A stretch of 51,725 nt of DNA. Source: a virus. How positions within the stretch are numbered: position 1 is the stretch's first letter; each line of letters opens with the position of its first letter. The stretch is from IMG/VR virus record IMGVR_UViG_2744054425_000001, positions 1-51,725 of that record. One strand, written 5' to 3'. The notes below the pieces were generated by a model that saw only the letters and a list, made by a program, of their open reading frames with translations, searched no databases and was not told where the DNA came from. The translations under genes and the position numbers were made by a program. Positions 8,513 to 51,725 of the stretch are shown in pieces.

Positions 8513-8698
8513 ATGGCTTATAAAAGAAAAACCAAAAAGGTTTACAAAAAGTATGCCGTCTATACAGAAGCCGACCGGGACAATGTAAAATTATGGGCCG
8601 ATTTATTGGCGGATAATAGTATAAAAAATGTGTGCAAAGTTTCGGGATACTCTAAAAACTTTGTTTACAAAACACTAAGATATTACACACCAATATGA
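8513..8698 (+). CDS. Small basic protein (61 aa), possible HTH
   Basis: Sequence begins MAYKRKTKKVYKKY and contains IKNVCKVSGYSKNFVYKTLR. The start is refined within track ORF 8465..8698. Confidence 0.45.
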   Translation: MAYKRKTKKVYKKYAVYTEADRDNVKLWADLLADNSIKNVCKVSGYSKNFVYKTLRYYTPI

Positions 8699-9477
8699 AT
8701 AAAATAATAACGGGTTCCGATTTTTCGGGGGTGGGAGCGTTCGACCAGGCGTTGGACCGTTTAGGGATCCAACAAAATAAAATTTTTGCGTGCGAAATGG
8801 ACCGGTACGCCCGCCAAAGTTACATTGCCAATTATGGGGATCCGGCATATTTCCCAAAAAATGTAAGGGACCGGAAAGTGCCCAAAAAGCCATTGGATAT
8901 TTACGTTTCAACACCACCGTGCCAAGTATTGAGGGATACGGGAAAACGTGGTGCGTTGTTCTACAATAGCCACAATTTTATTATGGCCAACAAACCGCGG
9001 GCGTTTATTTTAGAGAACGACAAACGGTTGTTGGTCCATGACAAACAGGACAAAACCAATGAATTTGGGCAAACGTTCAACCGTTGGGTGGCGTATTTGG
9101 GCGGCAAAAGTGTAAACGGCAACCCGGTGGTGTTCCCGCATCCGGAAAGCGTCCCATATCACATGTATTACACCATTTTAAATGTAAAGGATTACGGCAC
9201 GCCGTATGATTTGGAACGGGTTTTTATTGTTGGTATTAGGGACGACGCGGACAACCAATTTATGTGGCCAAAACCGGAACCATTACAACAACAATTATTG
9301 AGCGATAAGGAAATTAAATTAACCCCGCGGGATCAATTCCGGGCAATGGGTTTTCCGGACAGCTTTAAAATTGAAGTAAGCGACACCCAAGCATATAAAC
9401 AGGCGGGTAATTCCATTTGCGTGGGGGTGTTGGCCGCCATAATTGGAAAATTACCATTTGTAAATGTTGGATCATAA
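8695..9477 (+). CDS. Compact DNA (cytosine-5) methyltransferase-like protein
   Basis: Motif I DFSGVGAF, motif IV TPPCQ, motif VI-like ILEND (canonical is ENV), motif VIII-like NVKDYGTPYDLERVFIVG, and motif X QAGNSICVGV. At only 260 aa it has a very short target-recognition region. Confidence 0.7.
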   Translation: MNKIITGSDFSGVGAFDQALDRLGIQQNKIFACEMDRYARQSYIANYGDPAYFPKNVRDRKVPKKPLDIYVSTPPCQVLRDTGKRGALFYNSHNFIMANKPRAFILENDKRLLVHDKQDKTNEFGQTFNRWVAYLGGKSVNGNPVVFPHPESVPYHMYYTILNVKDYGTPYDLERVFIVGIRDDADNQFMWPKPEPLQQQLLSDKEIKLTPRDQFRAMGFPDSFKIEVSDTQAYKQAGNSICVGVLAAIIGKLPFVNVGS

Positions 9478-11746: not shown

Positions 11747-11781
11747 AAAAAATAGTGTTGAATTTTTAAATATAGTTAGTT

Positions 11782-12306
11782 ATGAATTTAGGATTTATGC
11801 AAAAATGGCCAAAGAAAATGGGCCAGGAGTTAGAAGGGAAACCCACCTATTTTGTGGACAAAATATGGTGTCGGTTGCTGCCCATGTTCGGGGCGGACGA
11901 ATTGGCTAAATCTAGGAGGGAATACAGCCAAATTTTTGGTAAAGATTGGGACGGCGAAAAGTTAATAATTTATTCAAAACCCCACACCATAAGAGCCAAT
12001 AAAAGTGGCCGTATAAAAGCCGGTGTGGAGTTGCAACCGTTCGTTTGGAGTGGTAAACCATACCATAGTAAACCGTTCTATTTTTCCCCAAAAATACATT
12101 GTGTAAGTACCCAGGTAATACAGATCAAAAAAAGCGGTGAAAAATGGCGCATGCCATGGGTAACGGTGGACGGGGTTTTGTTGACCGCCCCGGAAATACA
12201 AACATTGGCCATAAATGACGGGTTTAAGAGTACGGACGATTTTTTTAAATGGTTTGATCAGGATTTTACCGGAACCATTATCCATTGGACAGACTTAAAA
12301 TATTAG
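11782..12306 (+). CDS. ASCH/PUA-like domain protein (tentative)
   Basis: The pattern KPHTIRANKSGRIKAGVEL...INDGFKSTDDFFKWF...GTIIHWTDL resembles ASCH-domain proteins. Confidence 0.4.
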   Translation: MNLGFMQKWPKKMGQELEGKPTYFVDKIWCRLLPMFGADELAKSRREYSQIFGKDWDGEKLIIYSKPHTIRANKSGRIKAGVELQPFVWSGKPYHSKPFYFSPKIHCVSTQVIQIKKSGEKWRMPWVTVDGVLLTAPEIQTLAINDGFKSTDDFFKWFDQDFTGTIIHWTDLKY

Positions 12307-13044: not shown

Positions 13045-13808
13045 TGAAAAATGCAAAAAAAGAACCCATTACGGCCGGGGAAGCGTTGCGGAAATTAAAA
13101 ACCATGATGGACGACCGTTCCGCAGTAAACACGCAATTGGTGTTTAATAACCCAGGAGCCGCAAAAGAACAAAAACCCGCATACGTGTTGTCCAAAAAGG
13201 ATTTGTGGCGGTTGTTCGATTATTACGCGGCCAAAGCCGTTAAAGAATCCAACAGCACGTTGGAAGCGTACGAAATTAACAACGTTGTGTTGACGGTCTT
13301 AAAATACATGATCCAGGATCCGGAATTTAATGTGTTGAACATGGTAAAGAACACGCCGAGTTTGCAAAAAGGGTTGTTGATCCACGGACCGTACGGTGTG
13401 GGCAAATCCATGTTGTTTTCCATATTGCAGAATGTTGGCCGGGAGTTGGCCACCAAAAGAAATTGCACGGATATTTGGTTTACCTACATAACCGCCAATG
13501 ACCTGGTGCAACGGTATATGGACGCCGCCAAAAATGAAAAGGGCGCGGACAATGTGTTTTCCATAGAAAATTACTACAAAGGGGTTTTGTTTATAGACGA
13601 TTTGGGCCACGAAGAAAAGGCATTTAATAAAACCGAATTGATAGGCCAATTATTGTTCGAGCGCCACAGGAGGGGGGCAAAAACACACGTAACAACCAAT
13701 TTTCCGCCGTCCGAAATATCCCAAAGGTACGGGGCGTTTATTGGGGACCGGTTGCCGCAAATGTTCAACTTTATCAAATGGAACGGAAACACAAAAAGAG
13801 GGGTTTAA
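13044..13808 (+). CDS. DnaC/IstB-like AAA+ helicase loader
   Basis: Walker A HGPYGVGKSMLF and Walker B VLFIDDLGHEE. TAATG junction with the upstream gene. Confidence 0.8.
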   Translation: MKNAKKEPITAGEALRKLKTMMDDRSAVNTQLVFNNPGAAKEQKPAYVLSKKDLWRLFDYYAAKAVKESNSTLEAYEINNVVLTVLKYMIQDPEFNVLNMVKNTPSLQKGLLIHGPYGVGKSMLFSILQNVGRELATKRNCTDIWFTYITANDLVQRYMDAAKNEKGADNVFSIENYYKGVLFIDDLGHEEKAFNKTELIGQLLFERHRRGAKTHVTTNFPPSEISQRYGAFIGDRLPQMFNFIKWNGNTKRGV

Positions 13809-13810
13809 TT

Positions 13811-14485
13811 ATGGAAAATTTAAAATTAACATGTGAATCCAATATAGATTTAATGGCAAGGTATCCGGACAATTATTTTGATTTGGCCATAGTGGACCCG
13901 CCATACGGTATTGGGGAAACCAAAAGAAAAAACGAAAGCCGGTCCAATTTGGCAAAATCTATTAAATACAACCCTTCCAATTGGGATAATAAACCACACG
14001 ACATTGTATTTTTTAATGAATTAAAAAGGGTTTCAAAACACCAAATTATTTTTGGGGCCAATCATTTTATTGAAAATATACCTAATGCCAATAGTAGTTG
14101 TTGGATTGTATGGGATAAAGACAACGGAAAAACGGATTTTGCAGATTGTGAATTGGCATACTGCAGTTTTAATAGTGCGGTGCGTAGGGTTAAAATTAGA
14201 TGGTCCGGAATGTTACAACACGATATGAAAAACAAAGAAATAAGGATACACCCCACCCAAAAACCGGTTAGATTGTACGAATGGATAATTTTAAAATACG
14301 CGGAGCCAGGGCAAAAAATTTTAGATACCAATTTGGGTTCCGGAAGTATTGCCGTTGCAATAGATAAGATTAACAAGGTTGAAAAATGGAATTTACATTT
14401 AACCGCGTGCGAATTGGATAAAAAGCATTTTAACGACGCAATAACCAGGATACAACAGGAAACAACACAAATTGCAATTTTTTAA
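13811..14485 (+). CDS. DNA methyltransferase, N6A/N4C beta-class (DPPY)
   Basis: LAIVDPPYGIG (motif IV) precedes HPTQKP and ILDTNLGSGS (motif I). This is the PF01555-type order. Confidence 0.85.
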   Translation: MENLKLTCESNIDLMARYPDNYFDLAIVDPPYGIGETKRKNESRSNLAKSIKYNPSNWDNKPHDIVFFNELKRVSKHQIIFGANHFIENIPNANSSCWIVWDKDNGKTDFADCELAYCSFNSAVRRVKIRWSGMLQHDMKNKEIRIHPTQKPVRLYEWIILKYAEPGQKILDTNLGSGSIAVAIDKINKVEKWNLHLTACELDKKHFNDAITRIQQETTQIAIF

Positions 14486-14502
14486 TAAATAGTATTTACA
14501 GA

Positions 14503-14997
14503 ATGGAAAAAAGAAAAGGCATAGGATCCCACCAATCTGCAAAAATGAAAAAGGACGAATGGTTGACGCCGCCCGAAATAATAAAAGCGTTGGGGGATTT
14601 TGATTTGGACCCATGCGCACCAATTACACGCCCATGGGAAATGGCGGTTAAACATTACACAATAAACGACAATGGATTGTCCAAAGAGTGGACCGGCCGT
14701 GTATGGTGCAATCCGCCGTACGGTTTAGAAGCTAATAAATGGTTAAAAAAATTAAATGAGCACGGAAACGGTATTGCGTTAATTTTTGCGAGAACAGAAA
14801 CTAAAATGTTTTTTGATTGGGTTTGGCACAAGGCCACCGCGGTAAAATTCATTGAAGGGCGTTTACATTTCCACCACGTGGACGGCACCAGGGCAAAAGC
14901 CAAAGCGGGCGCGCCGTCGGTATTAATTGCATACGGAAAGGAAAACGCCGAAATATTGGAAAAATGCGGAATTAAAGGTAAATTTTTAAGGTTATGA
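14503..14997 (+). CDS. Phage Dam-type DNA N6-adenine methyltransferase (NPPY)
   Basis: Contains EWLTPPEIIKALGDFDLDPCA and VWCNPPYG. Size is ~160 aa, typical of the PF05869 family. Confidence 0.8.
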   Translation: MEKRKGIGSHQSAKMKKDEWLTPPEIIKALGDFDLDPCAPITRPWEMAVKHYTINDNGLSKEWTGRVWCNPPYGLEANKWLKKLNEHGNGIALIFARTETKMFFDWVWHKATAVKFIEGRLHFHHVDGTRAKAKAGAPSVLIAYGKENAEILEKCGIKGKFLRL

Positions 14998-15017
14998 TCT
15001 AAAATAAAAACCGCATC

Positions 15018-15120
15018 AAATGTTAAAATTTCGTGTTATATGAAAAAAATGTGGGTTTGGGTATTGTTTTATCGAAATATACAACGTATATTTACGGTGT
15101 TGAATTAATAAAGCGTTACA
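15018..15120 (+). promoter_or_regulatory. R1: copy 1 of a ~100-bp conserved promoter/5'-UTR cassette
   Basis: Near-identical to 15904..16006 and 38650..38745. It has TTG (15064..15066), a 20-nt spacer and TATATTTA (15087..15094), matching the Bacteroidota -33/-7 consensus TTG/TAnnTTTG. A 7-bp inverted repeat AAATATA-N5-TATATTT overlaps the -7 box. Confidence 0.7.
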
Positions 15121-15122
15121 AA

Positions 15123-15314
15123 ATGACATCATCAGAAATTAACACCGAGATTAAAAAGACCAAAGCCATAATGGATGCACTTTTGGTTTGTGTAAAAGAC
15201 AAATCAATTTCCGTTCAAGATAGAAACCAATATTATGGCGAATATTTACAGGCATCAACTTATTATTTAAAGTTGAACCAGGTAAAGCCACAACACAATT
15301 TAACAATTGCATAA
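15123..15314 (+). CDS. Hypothetical small protein (63 aa) driven by R1
   Basis: First ATG after the repeat. The upstream part of track ORF 15033..15314 lies in the non-coding repeat. Confidence 0.55.
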   Translation: MTSSEINTEIKKTKAIMDALLVCVKDKSISVQDRNQYYGEYLQASTYYLKLNQVKPQHNLTIA

Positions 15315-15360
15315 ACCAACAACCGGGGGCGGGATCACCGCCACATAAAATATTTGAAAC

Positions 15361-15618
15361 ATGGAAAATTTAAGCACACCAAAAAAAGAAATGATTTACC
15401 AGGAAATGGGACAGACCACCAACGCACAAATTGAGGTCCGCACATCTTACAACGGCGGGTTGTATTTAACCACCGCGTTGGATCTTAAAGGCCGCGGAAT
15501 TAAGCAAAGCGGGGACGGATCAACCCACAAAAGAGGGTTAAAGACCTACCACGCCACCCAAAAGGCCATGGAAAAATTGGAATTGCAGTACACCACATGT
15601 TTTATGGCATCATTGTAA
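15361..15618 (+). CDS. Hypothetical protein (85 aa)
   Basis: Track ORF bounded by conserved hairpin elements on both sides. Confidence 0.55.
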   Translation: MENLSTPKKEMIYQEMGQTTNAQIEVRTSYNGGLYLTTALDLKGRGIKQSGDGSTHKRGLKTYHATQKAMEKLELQYTTCFMASL

Positions 15619-15663
15619 AAACATAATCCGGGGGCGGGCAACCGTCCCCATTAAATATAAATT

Positions 15664-15894
15664 ATGCAAAGGGAAAATGTAATAATAATCCATAAGGGCG
15701 ACACGTACGAAACGTGGGGATCGTTGACGGAAATTTGCGGAGTTGTCAAAGTAGGCAATAAAATGGTTAGTACCGGACAGGGCCACCAGGAGTTTAAATA
15801 CTCTACATTGCGCGAAAAAAAATACCCGTTTACGTACAAAGGATGGAAATTTATAAAAGTTCCCCACCGTACATTGGCCAAGGATCAACAGTAA
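15664..15894 (+). CDS. Hypothetical protein (76 aa)
   Basis: Track ORF lying between hairpin H2 and repeat R2. Confidence 0.55.
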   Translation: MQRENVIIIHKGDTYETWGSLTEICGVVKVGNKMVSTGQGHQEFKYSTLREKKYPFTYKGWKFIKVPHRTLAKDQQ

Positions 15895-15903
15895 AACGGC
15901 CAA

Positions 15904-16006
15904 AAATGTTAAAATTTCGTGGTAGGCGAAAAAAATGTGGCAATGTGTTTGTTTTATCGAAACATACAACGTATATTTACGGTGTTGAATTAATAAAGCG
16001 TTACAC
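15904..16006 (+). promoter_or_regulatory. R2: copy 2 of the conserved promoter cassette
   Basis: Aligns with R1 along its whole length, with a few substitutions. It ends directly at the ATG at 16007. Confidence 0.7.
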
Positions 16007-16351
16007 ATGAAAACTACATTAAAAGAGTACAACGAAAAATCCCAGGAAAAAAGCGAATTAAGAAGATCAGCGGACAACGCCCGTTATTCCCAGGATTACA
16101 CCACCTACCACGAATTAACCGAAAAGGTAAAGGAATTGGACCAGGCGTATTTTGACAAATTGGACACCGTTTCCGTTTCCTATTGGATAGGCGGACGATC
16201 TTATTACCAAGACGTTGTTAAGATCGGTAAAGCGTATTTTTGCCACGGCCGCAAAATGACCAAGGGCAACGGGTACAGGTTTATTGAAGAAATACCCGAA
16301 ATTACCGATAAAATGGCCGCGGATATGATGGCAGATTCTTACTACTATTAA
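16007..16351 (+). CDS. Hypothetical protein (114 aa) driven by R2
   Basis: Track ORF whose ATG directly follows the repeat. Confidence 0.6.
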   Translation: MKTTLKEYNEKSQEKSELRRSADNARYSQDYTTYHELTEKVKELDQAYFDKLDTVSVSYWIGGRSYYQDVVKIGKAYFCHGRKMTKGNGYRFIEEIPEITDKMAADMMADSYYY

Positions 16352-16403
16352 AAAACACTAACAACGGGGGCGGGCAACCGTCCCCAATTAAAGATTTGAA
16401 ACC

Positions 16404-16529
16404 ATGAAAGCAATAATAATACTACTATTGGCCACCATTATTTCCGAGTATTACGAAGCAATTAAGGAAGAAACCGACCAACAACCCACATTTGACGGGT
16501 TTTATAGATGGTTGGTAATAAAAGATTAA
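16404..16529 (+). CDS. Very small hydrophobic protein (41 aa)
   Basis: Hand translation gives MKAIIILLLATIISEYYEAIKEETDQQPTFDGFYRWLVIKD. It is preceded by hairpin H3 and a TTTGAAACC leader. Confidence 0.3.
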   Translation: MKAIIILLLATIISEYYEAIKEETDQQPTFDGFYRWLVIKD

Positions 16530-16609
16530 TTTTACAGTACTTCAAAGTTTTGAAAAGTCCACAGGAAAACCCCGTGGCGCATTGTTCCAATTAAAATTAC
16601 AACCAAACA

Positions 16610-17068
16610 ATGGTTTATATTGGAATAGACCCAGGCGTGGAAACCGGCGTGGGATACAGATTACCCAAAAACGCAAACGTAGGCGTTAAAACTCTAAAAA
16701 TTCATAATGCAATGGCGTTGGTCAATTACCTGGTAAGGGAAAACGACCGCGTGCATGTGCGTATTGAGGACGCCCGCAAACGTAAATGGTTCGGCGGCAA
16801 AGGTAAGAACGACCAAAAGCAGATCGACGCCAAAAAACAGGGCGCCGGATCAGTTAAACGGGATTGTTCAATATGGGAAGCGTATTTGGACGATCTGCAA
16901 AAAGAACACCCGCAAAAACTCACATTTGAAATGTTGCACCCAGTTAAGGACGGGACAAAGTACACAAGCCGTCTATTTGTGTCAATTACGGGCATACAGG
17001 GCCGCACATCAAGCCACGCACGCGACGCATATATGTTAATACACGAATACACCTATAAATCTATTTAA
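16610..17068 (+). CDS. RuvC-like Holliday junction resolvase
   Basis: MVYIGIDPGVETG carries the first catalytic Asp and SSHARDAYMLIHEY the C-terminal catalytic Asp. Confidence 0.7.
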   Translation: MVYIGIDPGVETGVGYRLPKNANVGVKTLKIHNAMALVNYLVRENDRVHVRIEDARKRKWFGGKGKNDQKQIDAKKQGAGSVKRDCSIWEAYLDDLQKEHPQKLTFEMLHPVKDGTKYTSRLFVSITGIQGRTSSHARDAYMLIHEYTYKSI

Positions 17069-17362
17069 ATGGCGGGGGGTATAATCAAATTACGTTTGGT
17101 ACGATCAATTATTTTAAATGACGTGCACAGATTGGAACAGGGGAAACCGCCTATAAAGTCCATTCATAGATTGGCCCTATTGATCGACACCAGGTACGGC
17201 GACGAGTACGAATACGAGCGTATAAAAGATGTAATGTATAAAGCACAAAAAACAGGCTATCAACAGCACGAAAAGGTCGAATGGATGGAAGGTTTAATAA
17301 ATAAGATTTGCGCGGTGTTGGACACAAAGCGCGAAGATCTTGTACAAGACATAGAGCAATGA
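17069..17362 (+). CDS. Hypothetical protein (97 aa)
   Basis: Track ORF that starts directly after the resolvase stop codon. Confidence 0.55.
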   Translation: MAGGIIKLRLVRSIILNDVHRLEQGKPPIKSIHRLALLIDTRYGDEYEYERIKDVMYKAQKTGYQQHEKVEWMEGLINKICAVLDTKREDLVQDIEQ

Positions 17363-21293: not shown

Positions 21294-21330
21294 GGCACAA
21301 AACAAACCCAAACCCCCCAGGATCAACAAG

Positions 21331-21392
21331 CCACCCAACCGGGTGGTTTTTTTGTACTTCAAATTTTTGGAGTTTACAATACTTAGTTTTGG
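21331..21392 (+). promoter_or_regulatory. DR-A copy 1: 62-bp terminator plus putative late promoter, identical to 39071..39132
   Basis: Hairpin CCACCC-AACC-GGGTGG plus a T7 run, followed by TTG...TAGTTTTG, which matches the TAnnTTTG -7 consensus. All 62 bases are identical between the two copies. Confidence 0.75.
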
Positions 21393-24330: not shown

Positions 24331-24403
24331 CGTGGGGTAGGGCAGTTGGTAGCCCGCCAGGCTCATAACCTAGAGGTCGCCGGTTCGAATCCGGCCCCCG
24401 CAA
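24331..24403 (+). tRNA. Phage-encoded tRNA-Met (anticodon CAT), no encoded CCA
   Basis: Hand-folded cloverleaf. Acceptor CGTGGGG/CCCCGCA has a C1-A72 mismatch. D-stem GGGC/GCCC. Anticodon arm CCAGG-CTCATAA-CCTAG has one mismatch. Variable loop AGGTC. T-arm GCCGG-TTCGAAT-CCGGC. Confidence 0.85.
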
Positions 24404-24430
24404 CAAATATTAATCACAAATAATTTTATT

Positions 24431-32668: not shown

Positions 32669-33727
32669 ATGGCAAGGGACAAAGCAACATTAACGAACAT
32701 TGATAAATCCAATTTAACGGATTTTCCAAACGGGCGTATTAAGGACAACAGCGGGGCCGGGGACGGGACACCGGTAAACGAAAGGGTGTACGGGGATTTG
32801 CACGAAGTTTTCGCAAAATTAATGCGGTTGTACGGCATTAGTTACAACGGGTTGCCGGACAATGAAACAAACGGGTACCAATTATTGGACGCGTTGGTGG
32901 CGTTGGCATCCAAAAACGATTACATTTTGGACATTGGCAGCGTGGGCGGAAAATTAACGGTCCCGGTAAAATTGGGATCATTAAAAACCGGGGAATCCAT
33001 AGTGTGCAAAGCCACAGTAAACAAAGGATCCGAAACCGTCATAAAAGGTACATTGGACAACACGGACAAAACGGTGTCGTTTGTCGGAAGTTTTTTAAAT
33101 GGTGAATACGTGCGGTTGATCAACACCGGCGCAAATATAACATTGGTCCGTTTGGTGGACATTTCCAACATTGATTCGGTAGTTACTGCCAATAGTTTTT
33201 TAAAGGCGGCCACAACGGCCCAGGAAAAGGCCGGCACATTAAACACCGTGGCCACCACCCCGTTGGGCAACATATTGGCATTTGCGGAATGGGTAAACGG
33301 TACGCCGTCCGCGGCTAGTTTGGCCACCGCATTGCGCAACGGGTTGTACCCAAAGGAACATTTTTCCATTGTGGAGAACATAGGCAACGACCGCGTGCGC
33401 AACATTGGTTTTTTTAGTGGTATCCAGGTGGACGGCGACCCAATGAATACGTTTTACACCGTGGGCGGGGACGTAACGGTGGCCAAGAAAACAGGCAACG
33501 ACGGCGACACGGATTTAATAACAATAACCATGGCCAACGCAATGGACAATACCAATTATTTTGTGCGCACGTTTATACAATCCCAGGGCAACCAAAAAAA
33601 CGATTCGGAAATGGAATGTCCCAATTTTAGGCCCATAAGCACCACCCAATTTATATTGGCATTGCGTGAAAGTGGCAGCGTGGTACAAAATTTAAAAATA
33701 CACATGGAAGTTGTACAAATATCATAA
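32669..33727 (+). CDS. Tail fibre protein 1
   Basis: Follows the baseplate wedge genes. Its N-terminal ~85 aa are paralogous to the next gene. Confidence 0.6.
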   Translation: MARDKATLTNIDKSNLTDFPNGRIKDNSGAGDGTPVNERVYGDLHEVFAKLMRLYGISYNGLPDNETNGYQLLDALVALASKNDYILDIGSVGGKLTVPVKLGSLKTGESIVCKATVNKGSETVIKGTLDNTDKTVSFVGSFLNGEYVRLINTGANITLVRLVDISNIDSVVTANSFLKAATTAQEKAGTLNTVATTPLGNILAFAEWVNGTPSAASLATALRNGLYPKEHFSIVENIGNDRVRNIGFFSGIQVDGDPMNTFYTVGGDVTVAKKTGNDGDTDLITITMANAMDNTNYFVRTFIQSQGNQKNDSEMECPNFRPISTTQFILALRESGSVVQNLKIHMEVVQIS

Positions 33728-33729
33728 GC

Positions 33730-34893
33730 ATGAGAACAATAAAACATTTAGCGGTACCACAGGACACGGATTTGTCCAAATGGCCCAATGGCCAATTAAA
33801 AAACGAAACGGACAGCGAAGCGGGAACGCCCGTTGTGCGCGAAATTTTGGGCGATCCATTAACAAATATTTACGCCATTTTAACCGCTGCAGGAATTACG
33901 CCCAATGGCCAGGAGGACAGCGAAACAAACGGGTACCAATTTTTGGAAGCGTTGCAGAAATTGGCCAACGTTTTAAACGACGTGGAACAAATATTGACAT
34001 TGACCGGCACCGTGTGGTCCGTAAACATGGATTTGGACAATTTACCGGACAAATATGTATTTATTGCCAGGGTAACGGAAGATTACAACGACGCGGTGGG
34101 GTACACCATAGAGGGTACCGGATCCAATAGTTACGCGTTAACGTCCGCCACAGGATTTAAAGCCGCGGAAACCGTGTTGGTGGTATTGGATCATTCCGGC
34201 GTAAGGGTGTTGAGTTTAACAGCGTCCGCCACCACGTCGGAAGATGTGTTTACGGTATTTGGCACCCCGGTGTCCTTCAATAGTTCGTCTAAAATGTATT
34301 ATGAGGAAAACGGCAGTTTGTTAACGGACACCCCCACCATAAACCATTTGCAAAACATAATCAGGGTGGCAGAAAGCAACGGCACGTTGTTGGTTTACAA
34401 CATGTTTATTATGCAGGGCCACGCGTTGTGTTTTTGTTATTTACCGGACGTACAGACATACAAATTTTACCAATTTGATTTAAATGATTTGGACACCGCG
34501 GAATTGGTAACGGTGGAAGAAATTGTAATACCGACGGGATCCAACAACGAGCCATACGCATATACGGACGGCACCATGGTATATTTAACCAATTTGGCCG
34601 GGACCACCACAAACGATTACGAGTTGGCCGGGCTAACGTACGACCCCAACGCCAAAACATTAAACAATGATATTACCAGGATATTGGACACCGGGTTTAC
34701 CAAGACCACAAACGCCGTAATACAGCCAAATGAATTGGTAACATTTGTGGCGGGTGCTTTAAAAAAGTACAATTTAAGCACGGGCGCGGAAACGTATTTG
34801 GCAGATTATAACACCTTTATGGGGGCAATATTCAGGTTTAACGGAAACACCTATTATTCCAACGGCGAAGTGGCCAAAAAATGGACGGTATAA
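33730..34893 (+). CDS. Tail fibre protein 2 (paralogous N-terminus, divergent C-terminus)
   Basis: Shares PNG..K...GTPV...GD...L...GI..NG..D.ETNGYQ.L.AL..LA with fibre 1. Confidence 0.6.
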   Translation: MRTIKHLAVPQDTDLSKWPNGQLKNETDSEAGTPVVREILGDPLTNIYAILTAAGITPNGQEDSETNGYQFLEALQKLANVLNDVEQILTLTGTVWSVNMDLDNLPDKYVFIARVTEDYNDAVGYTIEGTGSNSYALTSATGFKAAETVLVVLDHSGVRVLSLTASATTSEDVFTVFGTPVSFNSSSKMYYEENGSLLTDTPTINHLQNIIRVAESNGTLLVYNMFIMQGHALCFCYLPDVQTYKFYQFDLNDLDTAELVTVEEIVIPTGSNNEPYAYTDGTMVYLTNLAGTTTNDYELAGLTYDPNAKTLNNDITRILDTGFTKTTNAVIQPNELVTFVAGALKKYNLSTGAETYLADYNTFMGAIFRFNGNTYYSNGEVAKKWTV

Positions 34894-37149: not shown

Positions 37150-38166
37150 ATGAAAATTAAAATTAACGGATCTTATCTTTATCATTTTTCGGACGTGGTG
37201 GTGTCGTTGGCATTGGACCAGGTGGCCAGTACATTTAGTTTTTTTGCGCGTTTTAATCCGGACAACGAACAGCACAAAGAAATTTTTAAACCGTTGAGTT
37301 TTCCAAAGGTGGAAATTTACGACGACAACAACACGTTAATGTTAACGGGCGTTATTGCCGTACATGCGTTTAAATCCCAGGCGGAACCATCATTGGTTCA
37401 ATTGTCCGGTTATTCGTTGCCGGGGGTGTTGGAAGATTGCACCATACCGGTTTCCGCGTACCCATTGGAAAGTATAAACCGGTCATTAAAGGACATTGCG
37501 GAAAAGTTGACCAAAATTTTTAACGTGTCGTTGTTTATAGATCCAGGGGTGCAACGGGAAGCGGCGGCCATTTACGCCAAAACCGTGGCAGAACCAACGG
37601 ACACCATAAAAACATATTTGGCCAAATTGGCCGCGCAACGCAATATTGTATTGAGCCACAACCCCAAAGGGCAATTGGTATTGTTCCGTCCGGACGTGTC
37701 CGCACAACCCGTGTATTTTTTCAATAAGGACAACACATTAAATATGGGGTTTTCCGTAAATGGCCAGGGGTTGCACAATGAGGTTTCTATAATACGGCAA
37801 CCGTCGGAAAAAAGCGGCAACGCGTCGTTGGTGGATACCGCTAAAAATTTATTGGTGGGCGCGTTCCGTCCCACGGTCGGCGTGTTGTCGTCCGGGATTA
37901 CCGCGGACACCAAAAAAGCAGCGGACAACAAAATGGCCGCGGAATTAAAAAACATTTCGTTGTCCGTGGTAAGGGAAGGATATTTGGCCATTGTTCCAGG
38001 TCAGACCGTGGAAGCACAGAACAAAGAAATTTATTTGTACCAACGCACCCGTTTTGTGGCGGACAATGTAACCATTACCAAAAAGGAAACCGGGTACACC
38101 ACGGAAATTAATTTGGTGTTGCCGGAAACGTTCACAGGGGCCACCCCTAAAAATATTTTTGCATGA
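37150..38166 (+). CDS. Baseplate hub protein (P2 gpD / Mu gpP-like)
   Basis: 338 aa, immediately upstream of the spike gene. The pattern SLALDQVASTFSF...VEIYDDNNTLMLTGVI is typical of gpD-like proteins. Confidence 0.5.
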   Translation: MKIKINGSYLYHFSDVVVSLALDQVASTFSFFARFNPDNEQHKEIFKPLSFPKVEIYDDNNTLMLTGVIAVHAFKSQAEPSLVQLSGYSLPGVLEDCTIPVSAYPLESINRSLKDIAEKLTKIFNVSLFIDPGVQREAAAIYAKTVAEPTDTIKTYLAKLAAQRNIVLSHNPKGQLVLFRPDVSAQPVYFFNKDNTLNMGFSVNGQGLHNEVSIIRQPSEKSGNASLVDTAKNLLVGAFRPTVGVLSSGITADTKKAADNKMAAELKNISLSVVREGYLAIVPGQTVEAQNKEIYLYQRTRFVADNVTITKKETGYTTEINLVLPETFTGATPKNIFA

Positions 38167-38651
38167 TCACTTTTAGTATTGTTAAAGATTCCATTTTGGA
38201 CGCCGGCAAGCGCATTTTAAAAATTGTAGAGTTTGGGCCTAAGACCACCAAGGAGTGCGCGCCGTTCGGGGAAGATTCCGCCCCGTTAAAAGATATGGTG
38301 GCCATACATGCCAGGACCACGGAAAGCGGGGAAAGCGTCGTAATTGGGTACATAAACAAAGACCAATTGGCCAACCCAGGGGAAAAACGCATGTACAGTT
38401 TAAAACCGGACGGATCATTGAGTTTTGATATTTATTTGAAGAACGACGGCACCGTGGAAATTGGCGGAAACGGGCACCACCTGGTTAAGTACGCCCCATT
38501 AAATACGGCGTTGACAGACCAGGACACCGCCATTAACACGGAATTGGGCAAAATTGCATTGGCCATTGGTTCGTTGGGCGGTACGTACACCCCGGCAACC
38601 GTGGCCACGGACATTTCAGCAAGCCGGGCGGAAAACGTAAAAACGGGTTAA
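38163..38651 (+). CDS. Baseplate spike/assembly protein V (Mu gp45-like)
   Basis: Contains FGEDSAPLKDMVAIHARTTESGESVVIGYINKDQLANPGEKRMYS...DGTVEIGGNG. Confidence 0.55.
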   Translation: MITFSIVKDSILDAGKRILKIVEFGPKTTKECAPFGEDSAPLKDMVAIHARTTESGESVVIGYINKDQLANPGEKRMYSLKPDGSLSFDIYLKNDGTVEIGGNGHHLVKYAPLNTALTDQDTAINTELGKIALAIGSLGGTYTPATVATDISASRAENVKTG

Positions 38652-38745
38652 ATGTTAAAATTTCATGTTTAGCGAAAAAAATGTGCATTGGGTGTTGTTT
38701 TACTGAAATATACAACGTATATTTACGGTGTTGAATTAATAAAAA
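38650..38745 (+). promoter_or_regulatory. R3: copy 3 of the conserved promoter cassette, inside the structural region
   Basis: Aligns with R1 and R2, including the TTG, the AAATATA-CAACG-TATATTT palindrome and GTGTTGAATTAATAAA. Confidence 0.7.
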
Positions 38746-38753
38746 CAATCACC

Positions 38754-39026: not shown

Positions 39027-39070
39027 AAAACCCGCCGATTTTTTATAAGTCGGCAAAGTTTCCCCACCAA

Positions 39071-39132
39071 CCACCCAACCGGGTGGTTTTTTTGTACTTC
39101 AAATTTTTGGAGTTTACAATACTTAGTTTTGG
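39071..39132 (+). promoter_or_regulatory. DR-A copy 2: 62-bp terminator plus putative late promoter
   Basis: Identical to 21331..21392. Confidence 0.75.
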
Positions 39133-39152: not shown

Positions 39153-39449
39153 ATGTCCGTATCCATTACCATTTACATTGAGAGCAAACCCACGTTATTG
39201 GCCAAAATACAGGCCATAGAAGCGTTGATCGATTCCATGTTTTTAAGAATGGCAGAGGTTGCCGGGGGTTTGGGTTCCACCGTGGACGAATATTCCATGG
39301 ACGATGGACAAATGAAGGTACGCACAAGTTACAGAAACGTGGACGACGTTTCCCAGGGCATTAAAGCGTTGGAAGCCTTAAAACAACAGTATATAAACCG
39401 GTACAACGGGCGCGTGGTCAATTTGCGCGACGCCCGCGGATTAAGATAA
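39153..39449 (+). CDS. gpW-like head-tail joining protein
   Basis: DGQMKVRTSYRNVDDVSQGIKALEALKQQ parallels lambda gpW [25 protein letters not shown]. It lies directly upstream of a lambda-type portal gene. Confidence 0.5.
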   Translation: MSVSITIYIESKPTLLAKIQAIEALIDSMFLRMAEVAGGLGSTVDEYSMDDGQMKVRTSYRNVDDVSQGIKALEALKQQYINRYNGRVVNLRDARGLR

Positions 39450-49932: not shown

Positions 49933-50372
49933 AAAAATACATTGTTTTATTGTTGATCCTGGTAATGTTTGGATGTGGCACCAAAAAAAAGGTGGTACAG
50001 GTGGCCACCGTTAAAAAGGACGTTACCATTACCCAGCACAATGACATAACCACCAACGCCGTGGAAATTAAGACCACGACCAAAACCACGTACACCCCAA
50101 AAGACCCCACAAAACCAATGGTATTACCGGACGGGACCACCACCACCAACGCCGTGGTGGAAAAGACCCAGGAAACCCAGGAAACCACCACCGCGGCCCA
50201 GGACAAAACCATTACAGAAACAAAGGACGAAACCAAGACCAAAGACCGCGCCATGGATTTGGACGTTAAAAAATCCAACCCTTATTTGTGGTTGTATATA
50301 GCCATTGCCACGGTGGTATTGTTCGTCCTGGTGTATTGGTACATTACCAAACCCAAAAAACCTACAATTTAA
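49929..50372 (+). CDS. Candidate unimolecular spanin: N-terminal lipoprotein signal plus C-terminal TM anchor
   Basis: MKKYIVLLLILVMFGCG has a lipobox Cys. The middle is Thr/Lys/Glu-rich. The C-terminal TM helix is YLWLYIAIATVVLFVLVYWYI. ATGA overlap with the endolysin stop. Confidence 0.55.
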   Translation: MKKYIVLLLILVMFGCGTKKKVVQVATVKKDVTITQHNDITTNAVEIKTTTKTTYTPKDPTKPMVLPDGTTTTNAVVEKTQETQETTTAAQDKTITETKDETKTKDRAMDLDVKKSNPYLWLYIAIATVVLFVLVYWYITKPKKPTI

Positions 50373-51639
50373 AATCCAACAAATTGGACCAGTCCGCCGG
50401 GCGGTCCGCGTCGTTTTCATGGATGTATTTTTTTATTCCGGATTCCGAGGTGTGGCCGGTAATGCGCATTAAATATTGGATGGCCTCAATATGTGTAAGG
50501 CCGTTACTTTTTAAGACCAAATACGTGTTGGTAATATAGGTGTGGCGGAAGGAATACAACCCGTATTCCGGACCCAGGCCCAACAGATCTTTTAATTTTT
50601 TAAATCGTTTTGTAAAATAGTTCCGTTTGTCCCGGTCGTCCGTGGTCCAAAGTGCGGGCGCGTTGTCCGGGGTGAACAAATGGAAATTGGCCGGTGGATC
50701 ATTGGCCAACAATTTTTTAAAGTCGTCAATATATAGGTTGGGAATGTGTTTTGTTTTCCCTGTTTTGGTTTTTTGGTCAAAATACATGGTTTGCGTTTCC
50801 AGGTCAATGGACGAAACCGTTAACCGGTTAACCTCAATGGGGCGCAAAAAGTTGTACGCCACAATTTTAATGTACAACAATAAATGGGGATCGTGTTTTT
50901 TTAGGTGGTCGGAAATGGTGCGCATTTGGTCAAGGGTAAACCGCCGGTCCGTTTTGGATCTTGTTTTTAGTTTTTTAATGTCCGTGTCTATAAAATTACG
51001 ATCAATAATAAATTTGTCCCGCAATTCTGAAAAGATGGACGACAGGGACGCCCGCACGTTGTTACGGTTGCGCGGTGAGGTTTTGCGCAAAACGGTGTCC
51101 AGGAACATGGAAACGTCCACACGATCAATTAATTTAATGTCGTGTGTGTTCTTTTTATTTTGTTTTAAAAATCGAATAAAGGCGTTTGCGTGGCTTTTAT
51201 AGTCGGTATAGGTACTAATGCCGACAACGTGTTGTTTTGCTGCCAAAGCGTCCAAAATGGCGTTTTCCGCGGACAAAACCGTGTCGGGTTCCACGGGTTC
51301 GGTTTCCTGGTATGTAAACGGGTTGAAACCTTCCAAAAACGTTTCCACCATACCTTTTTTGTAAACCCGCATAAATTCCAACCGGTCCGTTTTGGTCTTT
51401 AACCTATTAATCCCCGCTTTAATATTGGATTGCCGTACCATTTTTCCGGTGTCCGGGTGGCGGTACCACCATTTAATGTACCAATCTTTGGACATGGCCG
51501 CGCGTTGTTCTTTGGGTGTAAGATCGGCCCAATTGTCCGGATCAATGCCGCCGGTATAAAATGAAATGGTGTAATTTTTTTTTCCCACAGGTGGTACGGT
51601 TAGTGGTACTTTTTGATTGAAAACTTTTGAAAACCCCAT
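50362..51639 (-). CDS. int: Tyrosine recombinase / phage integrase
   Basis: LYSFRHTYITN (the box with His and Arg) and ITGHTSESGIKKYI (His...Tyr) form the catalytic C-terminus. It is adjacent to the tRNA-containing repeat, and its first 9 nt lie inside that repeat. Confidence 0.9.
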   Translation of the reverse strand: MGFSKVFNQKVPLTVPPVGKKNYTISFYTGGIDPDNWADLTPKEQRAAMSKDWYIKWWYRHPDTGKMVRQSNIKAGINRLKTKTDRLEFMRVYKKGMVETFLEGFNPFTYQETEPVEPDTVLSAENAILDALAAKQHVVGISTYTDYKSHANAFIRFLKQNKKNTHDIKLIDRVDVSMFLDTVLRKTSPRNRNNVRASLSSIFSELRDKFIIDRNFIDTDIKKLKTRSKTDRRFTLDQMRTISDHLKKHDPHLLLYIKIVAYNFLRPIEVNRLTVSSIDLETQTMYFDQKTKTGKTKHIPNLYIDDFKKLLANDPPANFHLFTPDNAPALWTTDDRDKRNYFTKRFKKLKDLLGLGPEYGLYSFRHTYITNTYLVLKSNGLTHIEAIQYLMRITGHTSESGIKKYIHENDADRPADWSNLLDFKL

Positions 51640-51725
51640 TTAAAAAACTCTTTAAAGCCTAATAAATAGGGGGTTTTCGTTGTAGCGAGAGGGGGGCACG
51701 ATCCCCCGACCTCCGGGTTATGAAT
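51631..51725. repeat. Right copy of the 95-bp direct terminal repeat (att core or circular overlap)
   Basis: Identical to 1..95. The tRNA(CAT) 3'-half reads on the minus strand, so the 5' half would lie beyond the window end if this is an integrated prophage. Confidence 0.85.

Follow-up and report, generated by a model that had tools for sequence, protein, structure and literature searches.

A repeated promoter-like cassette of about 105 nt precedes unrelated small accessory genes in a temperate phage of Flavobacteriaceae

The window analyzed here, the whole stretch of 51,725 nt, represents a complete temperate myovirus genome of 51.6 kb. It has a GC content of 43.1% and encodes an integrase, an XRE-type repressor (775–1209, − strand), RecT-, Orf- and RusA-like recombination genes, a terminase and a tail sheath. 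The relatives of the phage are prophages of Flavobacteriaceae (Muricauda, Flagellimonas and Christiangramia). Pfam identified the XRE protein as the sole recognizable regulator, and no sigma factor, when small early and middle ORFs and the products of the genes downstream of the repeats described below were scanned. Among the scanned proteins, neither a phage RNA polymerase nor a transposase was recognized, and the tyrosine integrase was the only recombinase.

A sequence-only reading of this genome had pointed out a repeat of about 100 bp in front of three unrelated small genes. All three copies are present where that reading had placed them:

15018–15122, + strand: R1, full cassette
15904–16006, + strand: R2, full cassette
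38650–38753, + strand: R3, full cassette, its first bases overlapping the stop codon of a tail or baseplate gene (38163–38651)

Pairwise blastn alignment gave identities of 90.3% over 103 nt (R1/R2), 87.2% over 109 nt (R1/R3) and 88.4% over 95 nt (R2/R3). The genome contains three exact occurrences of an invariant 34-mer (ATACAACGTATATTTACGGTGTTGAATTAATAAA), where 0.00 are expected, and an nhmmer profile of the cassette retrieved these three copies only (E 1e-32 to 1e-34; next match E = 0.05), with no fourth full-length copy in the genome. R1 and R2 lie 886 bp apart. Each copy spans the interval from the stop codon of the upstream gene to about 10 nt short of the ATG, and the likeness extends to the ATG, with 8 extra bases common to R1 and R2 (GCGTTACA).

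The differences between the copies are not evenly distributed. Variable columns concentrate in two spacers (permutation test, p = 0.001 for the adjacency of such columns and p = 0.01 for the uninterrupted 34 identical nt), both of which are nearly saturated with changes, 1-nt indels among them, whereas the blocks between them are identical. This confinement of the substitutions suggests that the blocks are under selection, and the permutation test bears out the earlier claim that conservation exceeds what a promoter needs, since it reaches block by block past the minimal −33/−7 promoter. The pattern also makes it very unlikely that the copies carry no constraint beyond a minimal promoter and simply reflect recent duplication or gene conversion by the phage RecT, Orf and RusA proteins, or an assembly artefact. 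The phage does encode an efficient recombination system, and a second reused module, consisting of a terminator and a late promoter, is present in two copies (21326–21392 and 39066–39132) that are 97% identical, indicating that this genome does copy regulatory modules. Recent copying would, however, yield uniformly high identity, whereas here two spacers are nearly saturated with substitutions between identical blocks. The Logan assembly of run SRR7051009 contains the same sequences, and its contigs stop within the invariant core, as a true repeat predicts; it may share reads with the window and therefore argues only weakly against an artefact. Two further candidates were rejected. A hidden small ORF is at odds with + strand frames that differ among the copies and with 1-nt indels that shift the − strand ORF of R1 relative to R2 and R3. 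A DGR-like pair of template and variable repeats does not fit the alignment, as the substitutions are not adenine-specific and no reverse transcriptase was found among the scanned proteins.

The internal parts of the cassette, all on the + strand, are arranged as follows:

15018–15035: R1, Block A
15042–15053: R1, Block B
15064–15066: R1, −33 TTG
15075–15093: R1, palindrome
15087–15094: R1, −7 box TATATTTA
near 15099: R1, predicted transcription start (+1)
15097–15112: R1, leader motif
15949–15951: R2, TTG
15972–15979: R2, −7 box
15982–15997: R2, leader motif
38695–38697: R3, TTG
38718–38725: R3, −7 box
38728–38743: R3, leader motif

A Bacteroidota-type promoter, TTG-N20-TATATTTA, is found in all three copies, as had been proposed, and R1, R2 and R3 are the only matches in the genome to TTG-N17-22-TAnnTTT in intergenic DNA on the + strand. 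In flavobacterial promoters the −7 box occupies −12 to −5, transcription starts 4–5 nt beyond it and AT-rich motifs lie at −18 and −28; the median leader is 24 nt long (mean 33 nt), and adenines at −3, −6, −12 and −13 favor translation (PMC6847099, PMC9723704). The geometry of the cassette agrees with these published promoters, and its predicted leader is about 24 nt long, A-rich and devoid of a conserved fold. One position departs from the consensus: G at −5 is nearly invariant in flavobacterial promoters (PMC6847099), whereas the −7 box of the cassette has A, so the promoter may have low activity or depend on an activator. The upstream blocks AAATGTTAAAATTTCRTG and GAAAAAAATGTG, also recovered in three of three copies, are A/T-rich and invariant. 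They are kept base for base, G and C positions included, which exceeds the need of a generic A/T-rich UP-like element, and Block A includes a 12-of-14 palindrome (AAATgTTAAaATTT).

An inverted repeat of 7 bp overlapping the −7 box had been read as an operator. The repeat is present and longer than claimed, with 8-bp arms and a 3-nt loop (AAATATAC-AAC-GTATATTT; one mismatch in the left arm of R2, AAACATAC), but on its own it is not significant, 9.6% of dinucleotide shuffles doing equally well, and the case for an operator is weakened. Its left arm falls on the AT-rich −18 motif that is normal in flavobacterial promoters (PMC6847099), and this palindrome (p ~0.1) is absent from the immunity region.

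The leader motif GTGTTGAATTAATAAA is present in all three copies; as had been noted, it recurs exactly at 2867–2882, and its first 10 nt also occur at 11755–11764. Together with related sites elsewhere, the partial copies are:

536–553, − strand: fourth copy, partial and diverged, covering −33 to −13 (TTTTATCG-AATATACAA)
2855–2882, + strand: relic-like partial copy with a degenerate −7 region and the exact 16-nt leader motif
11755–11770, + strand: leader-like motif GTGTTGAATTTTTAAA, 9 nt past the stop codon of the upstream ORF and 11 nt ahead of the ATG at 11782
1209–1221, + strand: Block B-like sequence TGAAAAATTTGTG in the immunity region, beside the XRE-type repressor gene

The site at 536–553 sits 56 nt 5′ of an ATG at 496, a spacing as in the cassettes, and retains the left part of the palindrome without its right arm. 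The gene that follows (176–496, − strand) adjoins the attachment site and encodes 106 aa with an N-terminus resembling a lipoprotein signal. The relic at 2855–2882 begins 10 nt past the stop codon of the upstream ORF and finishes 20 nt ahead of an SbcC-like gene. The partial copies at 536–553, 2855–2882 and 11755 point to spread of the cassette followed by decay.

The distribution of the leader motif bears on whether the conserved unit acts as RNA, either in its own leader, where a translational repressor or a small RNA would bind, or in transcripts reading through from the upstream gene, where a structure would affect processing or attenuation. The 10-mer GTGTTGAATT occurs five times in the genome, always on the + strand and 20–36 nt 5′ of an ATG, and two of these sites lie 9–10 nt past a stop codon, which leaves no room for a promoter. 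Moreover, no terminator was predicted in 14400–17200, the stretch containing R1 and R2, and none was seen just upstream of R3 when the sequence was inspected by eye, so that read-through into the cassettes is possible. R3 is also changed in both arms of an ATTTCG/CGAAAT repeat in a way that keeps them complementary (chance ~0.005, estimated after the fact). The promoter reading proposed below does not account for this compensatory-looking double change. It lies outside the RNAalifold consensus fold, and the pair would form a 6-bp A/U-rich helix around a 39-nt loop that appears in none of the predicted minimum-energy folds. RNAalifold returned a covariation term of +0.45, with 0 compensatory pairs among 30 predicted pairs. 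A search of Rfam with the cassette gave no match; fold z-scores on the + strand were −0.4, −2.2 and −0.8, those on the − strand were not significant, and the three leaders have no common fold (z = −3.2, +1.7 and +0.1). With just ~24 nt predicted to be transcribed and an A-rich leader that matches ordinary Bacteroidota translation-initiation signals (PMC6847099), the RNA-level element raised by the sequence-only reading finds little support, and we consider it unlikely.

Downstream of the cassettes lie small genes and a set of hairpins, all on the + strand:

15123–15314: R1 cargo, 63-aa orphan protein, GC 31.8%
15328–15342: GC-rich inter-cistron hairpin, copy 1, with a weaker stem and no T-run
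15361–15618: further small gene of the R1 unit, 85 aa, without family assignment
15630–15649: GC-rich inter-cistron hairpin, copy 2, GGGGGCGG-GCAA-CCGTCCCC, 8 bp with a GNRA-type loop and no T-run
15664–15894: further small gene of the R1 unit, 76 aa, without family assignment
16007–16351: R2 cargo, 114-aa protein of a small phage protein family (9 homologues, 43–63% identical)
16366–16385: GC-rich inter-cistron hairpin, copy 3, identical to copy 2 in stem and loop
38754–39026: R3 cargo, 90-aa orphan protein with four predicted helices, GC 34.8%
39034–39054 and 39069–39088: two hairpins ending the R3 unit, the second followed by a T7 run

The three proteins directly downstream (63, 114 and 90 aa) show no similarity to one another, in line with the earlier description. 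PHROGs, Pfam, PADLOC and NCBIfam gave no significant match for the function of the cargo, and neither did Foldseek searches of AlphaFold cargo models against PDB and BFVD; this includes the 114-aa protein, whose model is confident (pLDDT 89.5). These searches speak neither for nor against the anti-defence or host-takeover role for which the sequence-only reading had named the genes as candidates. The GC content of the 90-aa gene contrasts with the 47–49% of its neighbor genes, while the 85-, 76- and 114-aa genes, at 42–45%, are at the genome average. The proposal that non-coding regulatory DNA, comprising a predicted promoter and a leader, is reused ahead of unrelated small accessory genes is supported.

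Comparison with relatives placed these units in variable parts of the genome. In the relative L004, a mere 3 nt separates the genes that flank R3, which marks the segment made up of R3, its gene, the terminators and the second late promoter as inserted DNA. The R1–R2 genes are absent from relatives, which do retain the genes beyond, from 17069 on. In other phages, a different terminator and promoter precede each homologue of the 114-aa gene, so the promoter does not travel with its cargo. These comparisons assign the cassette to the phage rather than to the cargo. The cassette itself was not found in 33 related loci by nhmmer and motif searches, nor by blastn against GenBank phages. Exact-pattern scans with the core (a 32-mer, a 21-mer and a degenerate 27-mer) were likewise negative in viral, metagenome and GTDB genome collections, and the two-block upstream pattern had four matches elsewhere, all attributable to chance and without a promoter core downstream. 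Self-blast of the relatives revealed no equivalent repeated accessory promoter.

A dispersed repeat of ~100 bp in intergenic DNA could in principle be the remnant of a miniature mobile element (a MITE, a Correia-like element or an IS end) with an outward-facing promoter, and promoters are known from elements of this type (reviewed in PMC3575422). The copies, however, lack terminal inverted repeats, their first and last 15 nt not being inverted copies of one another, and no direct duplication of a target site flanks them. Internal inverted repeats are limited to the 8-bp palindrome and the 6-bp pair, all copies have one orientation and fit exactly between stop codon and ATG, and none occurs in the bacterial genome, metagenome or phage collections searched. 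Considering also that the tyrosine integrase is the only recombinase and that no transposase was recognized among the scanned proteins, we regard a mobile origin of this kind as extremely improbable; the sequence-only reading had named ends and target duplications as the marks of such an element.

That reading had further taken the extent of conservation to imply a dedicated regulator. The implication is too strong, because long conserved promoter cassettes without one exist in phages (T4 PeSLs, PMC2839356), although the observation beneath it, block-wise conservation beyond a minimal promoter, stands. A phage DNA-binding protein acting on Block A, Block B and/or the −33 to −13 segment would supplement the promoter reading, and we hold this to be possible without favoring it. 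The sub-optimal −7 box, with A at −5 in place of the near-invariant G (PMC6847099), would make the promoter factor-dependent; the conserved blocks are separated by near-random spacers, and Block A contains the near-perfect palindrome mentioned above. The −33 to −13 segment is repeated ahead of a fourth accessory gene. In addition, YRAAAAAWWTGTG occurs four times in the genome against 0.38 expected, confined to the three Block B copies and the site at 1209–1221, although this pattern was written after the sites had been seen. The latter site lies beside the repressor gene and adjoins two CACA-N5-TGTG palindromes (1167–1179 and 1190–1202), the only CACA-N4-7-TGTG palindromes in the genome. On the other hand, Block B lacks the CACA half of this candidate operator, the −7-box palindrome is not significant, and the scans described above recognized the XRE protein alone. 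Finally, T4-type early promoter cassettes are conserved over ~100 bp, including an AT-rich upstream region, with host polymerase only (PMC2839356).

Candidates for such a regulator, plausible but unproven, are the XRE-type repressor (775–1209, − strand), a Cro-like partner or an unrecognized small protein, any of which would tie the accessory genes to the lysis–lysogeny switch. In its most specific and more doubtful form, the immunity repressor or a Cro-like antagonist would bind at Block B (YGAAAAAAATGTG) and perhaps also at Block A, which is nearly palindromic, making the cassette the cis element of a small phage regulon. If so, dispersed accessory genes, namely the 63-, 114- and 90-aa genes and perhaps the 106-aa gene next to the attachment site, would be linked directly to the lysis–lysogeny switch, for example through activation in the lysogen via a −7 box that is weak by design. 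Among temperate phages of Bacteroidota, such a circuit would be the first to be described, and it would illustrate how the copying of a single cassette lets a phage bring added genes under its immunity control. We also considered the early promoter of the immunity region as a homologue of the cassette and rejected it, as the local alignment was not significant and the shared part was the Block B-like 13-mer only.

Taken together, R1, R2 and R3 are probably copies of one portable expression cassette of ~105 nt for moron-like genes, constituting a single co-regulated promoter class. We propose that TTG-N20-TATATTTA would be bound by host RNA polymerase carrying the primary Bacteroidota sigma factor and that transcription would start ~5 nt past the −7 box, near 15099, 15984 and 38730. 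The resulting leader of ~24 nt, predicted to be A/U-rich and without a conserved fold, would bring the adenines of its AAUAAA to about −12 and −13 relative to the start codon, allowing any ORF ~10 nt downstream to be translated without a Shine-Dalgarno sequence. Initiation may be boosted or tuned by the invariant A/T-rich blocks, which span about −82 to −65 (Block A) and −58 to −47 (Block B). Recombination would have copied the cassette to drive small accessory genes in variable genome parts, and the genes so driven would form a class separate from the late promoters. As R1 and R2 lie just upstream of packaging genes, antitermination of the lambda Q/qut or nut-like type was also considered and rejected: the packaging genes have their own late-promoter element at 16537, and the leader carries neither a −7-like pause element nor a hairpin.

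Rather than a novel type of element, the cassette is an instance of promoter reuse, familiar from other phages, in marine Flavobacteriaceae, a host group that has received little study. Its closest parallels are the PeSL cassettes of T4-like phages (Arbiol et al, 2010, PMC2839356; Comeau et al, 2014, PMC4122927), in which a host-type promoter is likewise preceded by an AT-rich region. As with PeSLs, the cassettes precede orphan genes in hyperplastic regions (the R1–R2 genes are absent from relatives, and the R3 unit is inserted relative to L004), GGGG...CCCC hairpins occur among the same small genes, and the phage has recombination genes of its own; direct repeats flank small gene sets (R1/R2) and could recombine, a process that in PeSLs yields indels or mini-circles. 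Unlike PeSLs, the promoter is of the Bacteroidota −33/−7 type rather than sigma-70, the leader has no Shine-Dalgarno sequence, and there are 3 copies here compared with about 50 per T4-like genome, in a temperate phage unrelated to T4. The PeSL stem-loop is stable, usually GC-rich and acts as a terminator or attenuator (PMC2839356, PMC4122927), whereas the R cassette has only its A/T-rich 8-bp palindrome, the GC hairpins being separate inter-cistron modules. The second reused module (21326–21392 and 39066–39132), which joins a terminator to a promoter, is nearer to the PeSL design than the R cassette.

The R3 unit also resembles the morons that Hendrix and colleagues described in lambdoid and other temperate phages (discussed in PMC2839356), being one extra gene with its own promoter and terminators between late genes that are adjacent in L004, with a cargo GC below that of its neighbors; the R3 unit alone has the gene placement of a moron. 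Expression from a repressed prophage is a further hallmark of morons. Unlike classical morons, each with its own unrelated promoter, several units here have one promoter cassette in common. Putative mobile promoters, defined by at least 80% identity over at least 50 nt in a −150 to −50 window upstream of non-paralogous genes (Matus-Garcia, Nijveen and van Passel, 2012, PMC3575422), offer another parallel: the cassette copies, scored over 95–109 nt instead, are 87–90% identical upstream of non-paralogous genes, and are tied to no known mobile element or Rfam family. That survey dealt with cellular genomes, whereas our cassette is found in a phage and includes the −7 box and leader.

As in other phages, several near-identical promoters in one genome would here define a temporal or functional class. 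Long-conserved classes of this type include the T4 early promoters, with their upstream A-tracts, and the 23-bp promoters of T7. The present cassette differs from these in that it precedes small accessory genes only, not a core module, and in that no phage RNA polymerase or sigma factor was recognized among the scanned proteins.

The regulatory DNA of Bacteroidota phages is almost uncharacterized, in a phylum with unusual promoters and translation signals. As a compact expression module combining upstream blocks, a predicted −33/−7 promoter and a leader without a Shine-Dalgarno sequence, the cassette is a potential genetic tool for marine Flavobacteriaceae. It also flags which small orphan genes the phage may treat as one functional set, and extends to a temperate flavobacterial phage the idea, developed for T4-like phages, that reused regulatory cassettes organize the variable parts of phage genomes.

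The phage carries three full copies of a putative promoter-leader cassette of about 105 nt, each directly upstream of a small gene and delimited by reading and aligning the three sites:

R1: 15018-15122, + strand, ahead of the gene for a 63-aa protein
R2: 15904-16006, + strand, ahead of the gene for a 114-aa protein
R3: 38650-38753, + strand, ahead of the gene for a 90-aa protein

The repeat is real, and the cassette description in the sequence-only reading proved accurate. The three downstream proteins are mutually unrelated. Using blastn, we obtained identities of 90.3% for R1/R2 (103 nt), 87.2% for R1/R3 (109 nt) and 88.4% for R2/R3 (95 nt). There are exactly three occurrences of a 34-nt core, against zero expected, and searching the window with a profile built from R1-R3 gave no further match below E = 0.05. 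The three sequences recur identically in the Logan assembly of run SRR7051009, which may share its reads with the window. Two contigs of that assembly (L034 and L035, 17.4 kb and 27.6 kb) are identical in sequence to the window and both break within the invariant core, at R3 and R1, as fits a genuine repeat. When such phages are assembled from short reads, the contigs can be fragmented or permuted at the cassettes.

Bases 1-95 exactly repeat 51631-51725, and this 95-bp terminal overlap indicates a complete genome, circular or terminally redundant, of 51,630 bp (43.1% GC). A GC-rich stretch at ~55-95 (within 40-100) resembles, by reading, a tRNA 3′ end and could be the attachment-site core. The gene content, including an integrase, a repressor and a tail sheath, identifies a temperate myovirus:

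50362-51639, - strand: tyrosine integrase
775-1209, - strand: XRE-type helix-turn-helix repressor
rightward early block: SbcC-like, RecT-like and Orf-like recombination genes, helicase, replication initiator, DnaC-like loader, several DNA methyltransferases
16610 onward: RusA-like resolvase, small and large terminase
after 21434: head protease, major capsid protein, tail sheath, tape measure, baseplate
after 39452: portal, further virion proteins, endolysin

The nearest large-terminase relatives (65-73% amino-acid identity) lie in prophages and viral contigs of Muricauda, Flagellimonas, Christiangramia and other Flavobacteriaceae, which fits the Bacteroidota-type promoter signals. The early region holds at least three DNA methyltransferase genes (8695-9477, 13778-14485 and 14503-14997), one Dam-like, a set that suggests heavy investment in restriction evasion. 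A tRNA-Met (CAT) gene (24331-24404) separates the major capsid gene from the tail genes and lies just past a terminator-like hairpin. In the tail/baseplate region, 32834-32907 and 33892-33965 (74 nt) are 73% identical, suggesting that the adjacent genes containing them (32669-33727 and 33730-34893) are a tandem paralogue pair.

Each cassette begins at, or a few bases from, the stop codon of the upstream gene, which R3 overlaps, and ends ~10 nt short of the ATG. Counted from the predicted start site, its elements are as follows:

Block A: AAATGTTAAAATTTCRTG, about -82 to -65
spacer 1: 6 nt, variable, between Block A and Block B
Block B: GAAAAAAATGTG, about -58 to -47
spacer 2: 9-10 nt, variable with 1-nt indels, between Block B and the -33 element
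-33 element: TTG
-33 to -7 segment: 20 nt, holding the palindrome AAATATAC-AAC-GTATATTT
-7 box: TATATTTA
leader motif: GTGTTGAATTAATAAA, beginning 2 nt upstream of the predicted +1
link to the start codon: 9-10 nt, variable

In flavobacterial promoter maps the -7 box covers -12 to -5 and transcription starts 4-5 nt beyond it; AT-rich motifs lie at -18 and -28, and leaders are typically 24-33 nt long (PMC6847099, PMC9723704). Applying this geometry, we predict +1 near 15099, 15984 and 38730 and leaders 23-24 nt long. Across the genome, the intergenic + strand pattern TTG-N17-22-TAnnTTT occurs only in R1-R3, as TTG-N20-TATATTTA. The -7 box departs from the consensus in carrying A at -5, where G is nearly invariant. 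In Flavobacterium, which lacks Shine-Dalgarno sequences, A at -3, -6, -12 and -13 favours translation (PMC6847099); the AATAAA at the 3′ end of the leader motif sets adenines around -12 and -13, with further adenines at -3 and -6 in R1 and R3.

Of the 95 aligned columns, 15 vary, and they are concentrated in the two spacers (permutation tests: p = 0.001 for adjacency of variable columns, p = 0.01 for a 34-nt invariant run). The spacers are near-random and the blocks vary at only 4 positions, a pattern that points to selection on the blocks, or to copies arriving independently from phages with the same constrained design, and counts against very recent copying. Judged from the alignment, the conservation exceeds that left by recent duplication. 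A remnant of a mobile element, the alternative raised in the sequence-only reading, was rejected, as inverted ends and target duplications are absent and our searches returned no copies elsewhere.

That reading had also proposed an RNA-level element, which is poorly supported: Rfam matched only a tRNA in the window, the cassettes have ordinary fold energies with no structure common to the three leaders, and RNAalifold detected zero covariation. Its operator-like palindrome is equalled by 9.6% of shuffles and has a left arm at the usual position of the AT-rich -18 motif. The only other inverted repeat of at least 6 bp in the cassette has ATTTCG in Block A as one arm and, 39 nt away, CGAAAT in the -33 to -7 segment as the other (15028-15033 / 15073-15078). 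In R3 (38660-38665 / 38705-38710) both arms are altered yet still complementary (ATTTCA, TGAAAT), with a chance of ~0.005 in a simulation estimated after the fact. This change could reflect paired protein half-sites, read-through RNA pairing or a template-switch mutation at a quasi-palindrome.

With its partial sites, the family comprises the three complete cassettes plus several members that are partial or decayed. There are five occurrences of the 10-mer GTGTTGAATT, each on the + strand with an ATG downstream. At 2855-2882 an exact 16-mer of the leader motif follows a degenerate -7-like stretch. The 10-mers at 2867 and 11755 start 9-10 nt past a stop codon, so these two could act only at the mRNA level or are relics. 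On the - strand, 536-553 (TTTTATCG-AATATACAA) matches the -33 to -13 segment and lies 56 nt from the ATG of a further gene, the same distance as in the cassettes; this fourth copy is missing the right palindrome arm, which weakens the operator reading of the palindrome.

176-496, - strand: 106-aa gene, adjoining the integrase end of the genome

By reading, the N-terminus of its product (MCTKFLQLSFFIVLLMCLSC...) looks like a lipoprotein signal.

A dedicated regulator, also proposed earlier, is possible. The immunity region contains the genome's only two CACA-N4-7-TGTG palindromes, 23 bp apart, beside a site related to Block B:

1167-1179 and 1190-1202: candidate operators CACAAAAAATGTG and CACAAAAATTGTG
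1209-1221: Block B-like half-site TGAAAAATTTGTG

The pattern YRAAAAAWWTGTG matches only TGAAAAATTTGTG and the three Block B copies (4 found, 0.38 expected), although it was written after the sites had been seen. Block A is a 12-of-14 palindrome, and a promoter that depends on an activator would be consistent with the weak -5 position. Such a regulator is nonetheless not required, because the promoter-early stem-loop (PeSL) cassettes of T4-like phages show ~100-bp conservation, including an AT-rich upstream region, with host polymerase alone (PMC2839356). We consider a repressor-coupled accessory regulon unlikely. The two palindromes and the half-site all map to the 5′ end of the XRE repressor ORF or immediately before it; translation of this ORF may in fact begin at an internal TTG. 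An 11-mer, TTCGTTGAAAT, is present on the + strand at 521-531 and 1297-1307, in both divergent regulatory regions flanking the repressor gene, and may be an additional regulatory motif.

A search of 5.8 billion sequences returned zero homologues of the 63-aa and 90-aa proteins. The 114-aa protein has nine homologues (43-63% identity), each preceded in its own contig by a different terminator and promoter. The 114-aa family was modelled confidently (pLDDT 89.5), with zero structural matches in PDB and BFVD, and protein searches gave no functional assignment for any cargo; an anti-defence role for these proteins is a hypothesis of the sequence-only reading. GC is low in the 63-aa (31.8%) and 90-aa (34.8%) genes. 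In relatives the genes from 17069 onward are kept, and the resolvase, the five small genes in the R1-R2 cluster and the Dam-like methyltransferase are all missing. In one relative (L004), only 3 nt separate the homologues of 38163-38651 and 39153-39449, and the portal gene comes next. By comparison, R3 together with the 90-aa gene, two hairpins and a second putative late promoter is a ~500-nt insertion, by its arrangement a putative moron (an extra phage gene with its own promoter and terminator) of classical layout. By these comparisons, the cassette is a property of the phage rather than of the cargo and marks variable regions. Within the small-gene cluster, a GC-rich hairpin module, GGGGGCGG-GCAA-CCGTCCCC, with a GNRA-type loop and no T-run, recurs between cistrons at 15328-15342, 15630-15649 and 16366-16385, each copy between a stop codon and the following ATG; these hairpins may serve in attenuation, RNA stabilisation or RNA processing.

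In a second reused module, a terminator hairpin that carries a T7 run precedes a promoter-like element with TAGTTTTG at its end:

21326-21392 and 39066-39132: terminator-plus-promoter module, two copies 97% identical
L024 4229-4255 and 10855-10881; L025 10059-10089 and 16740-16769: similar element, kept twice in each of these related prophages

A third occurrence of its core, GTACTTCAAANTTTTGRA, at 16537-16554, precedes the resolvase and terminase genes (three occurrences against 0.05 expected). The module is probably the late-promoter class of this lineage, which would leave the R class for accessory genes only.

The R cassette resembles PeSL in its span, its position ahead of orphan genes and the G-rich hairpins nearby, but lacks the internal stem-loop that defines PeSL, whose design the second module matches better. 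The R3 unit matches morons, and the cassette has the sequence properties of "putative mobile promoters". Most likely, the phage reuses the repeat as a promoter-leader cassette to express moron-like genes, and as such it is a new example of a known phenomenon in a poorly studied group of phages and hosts.
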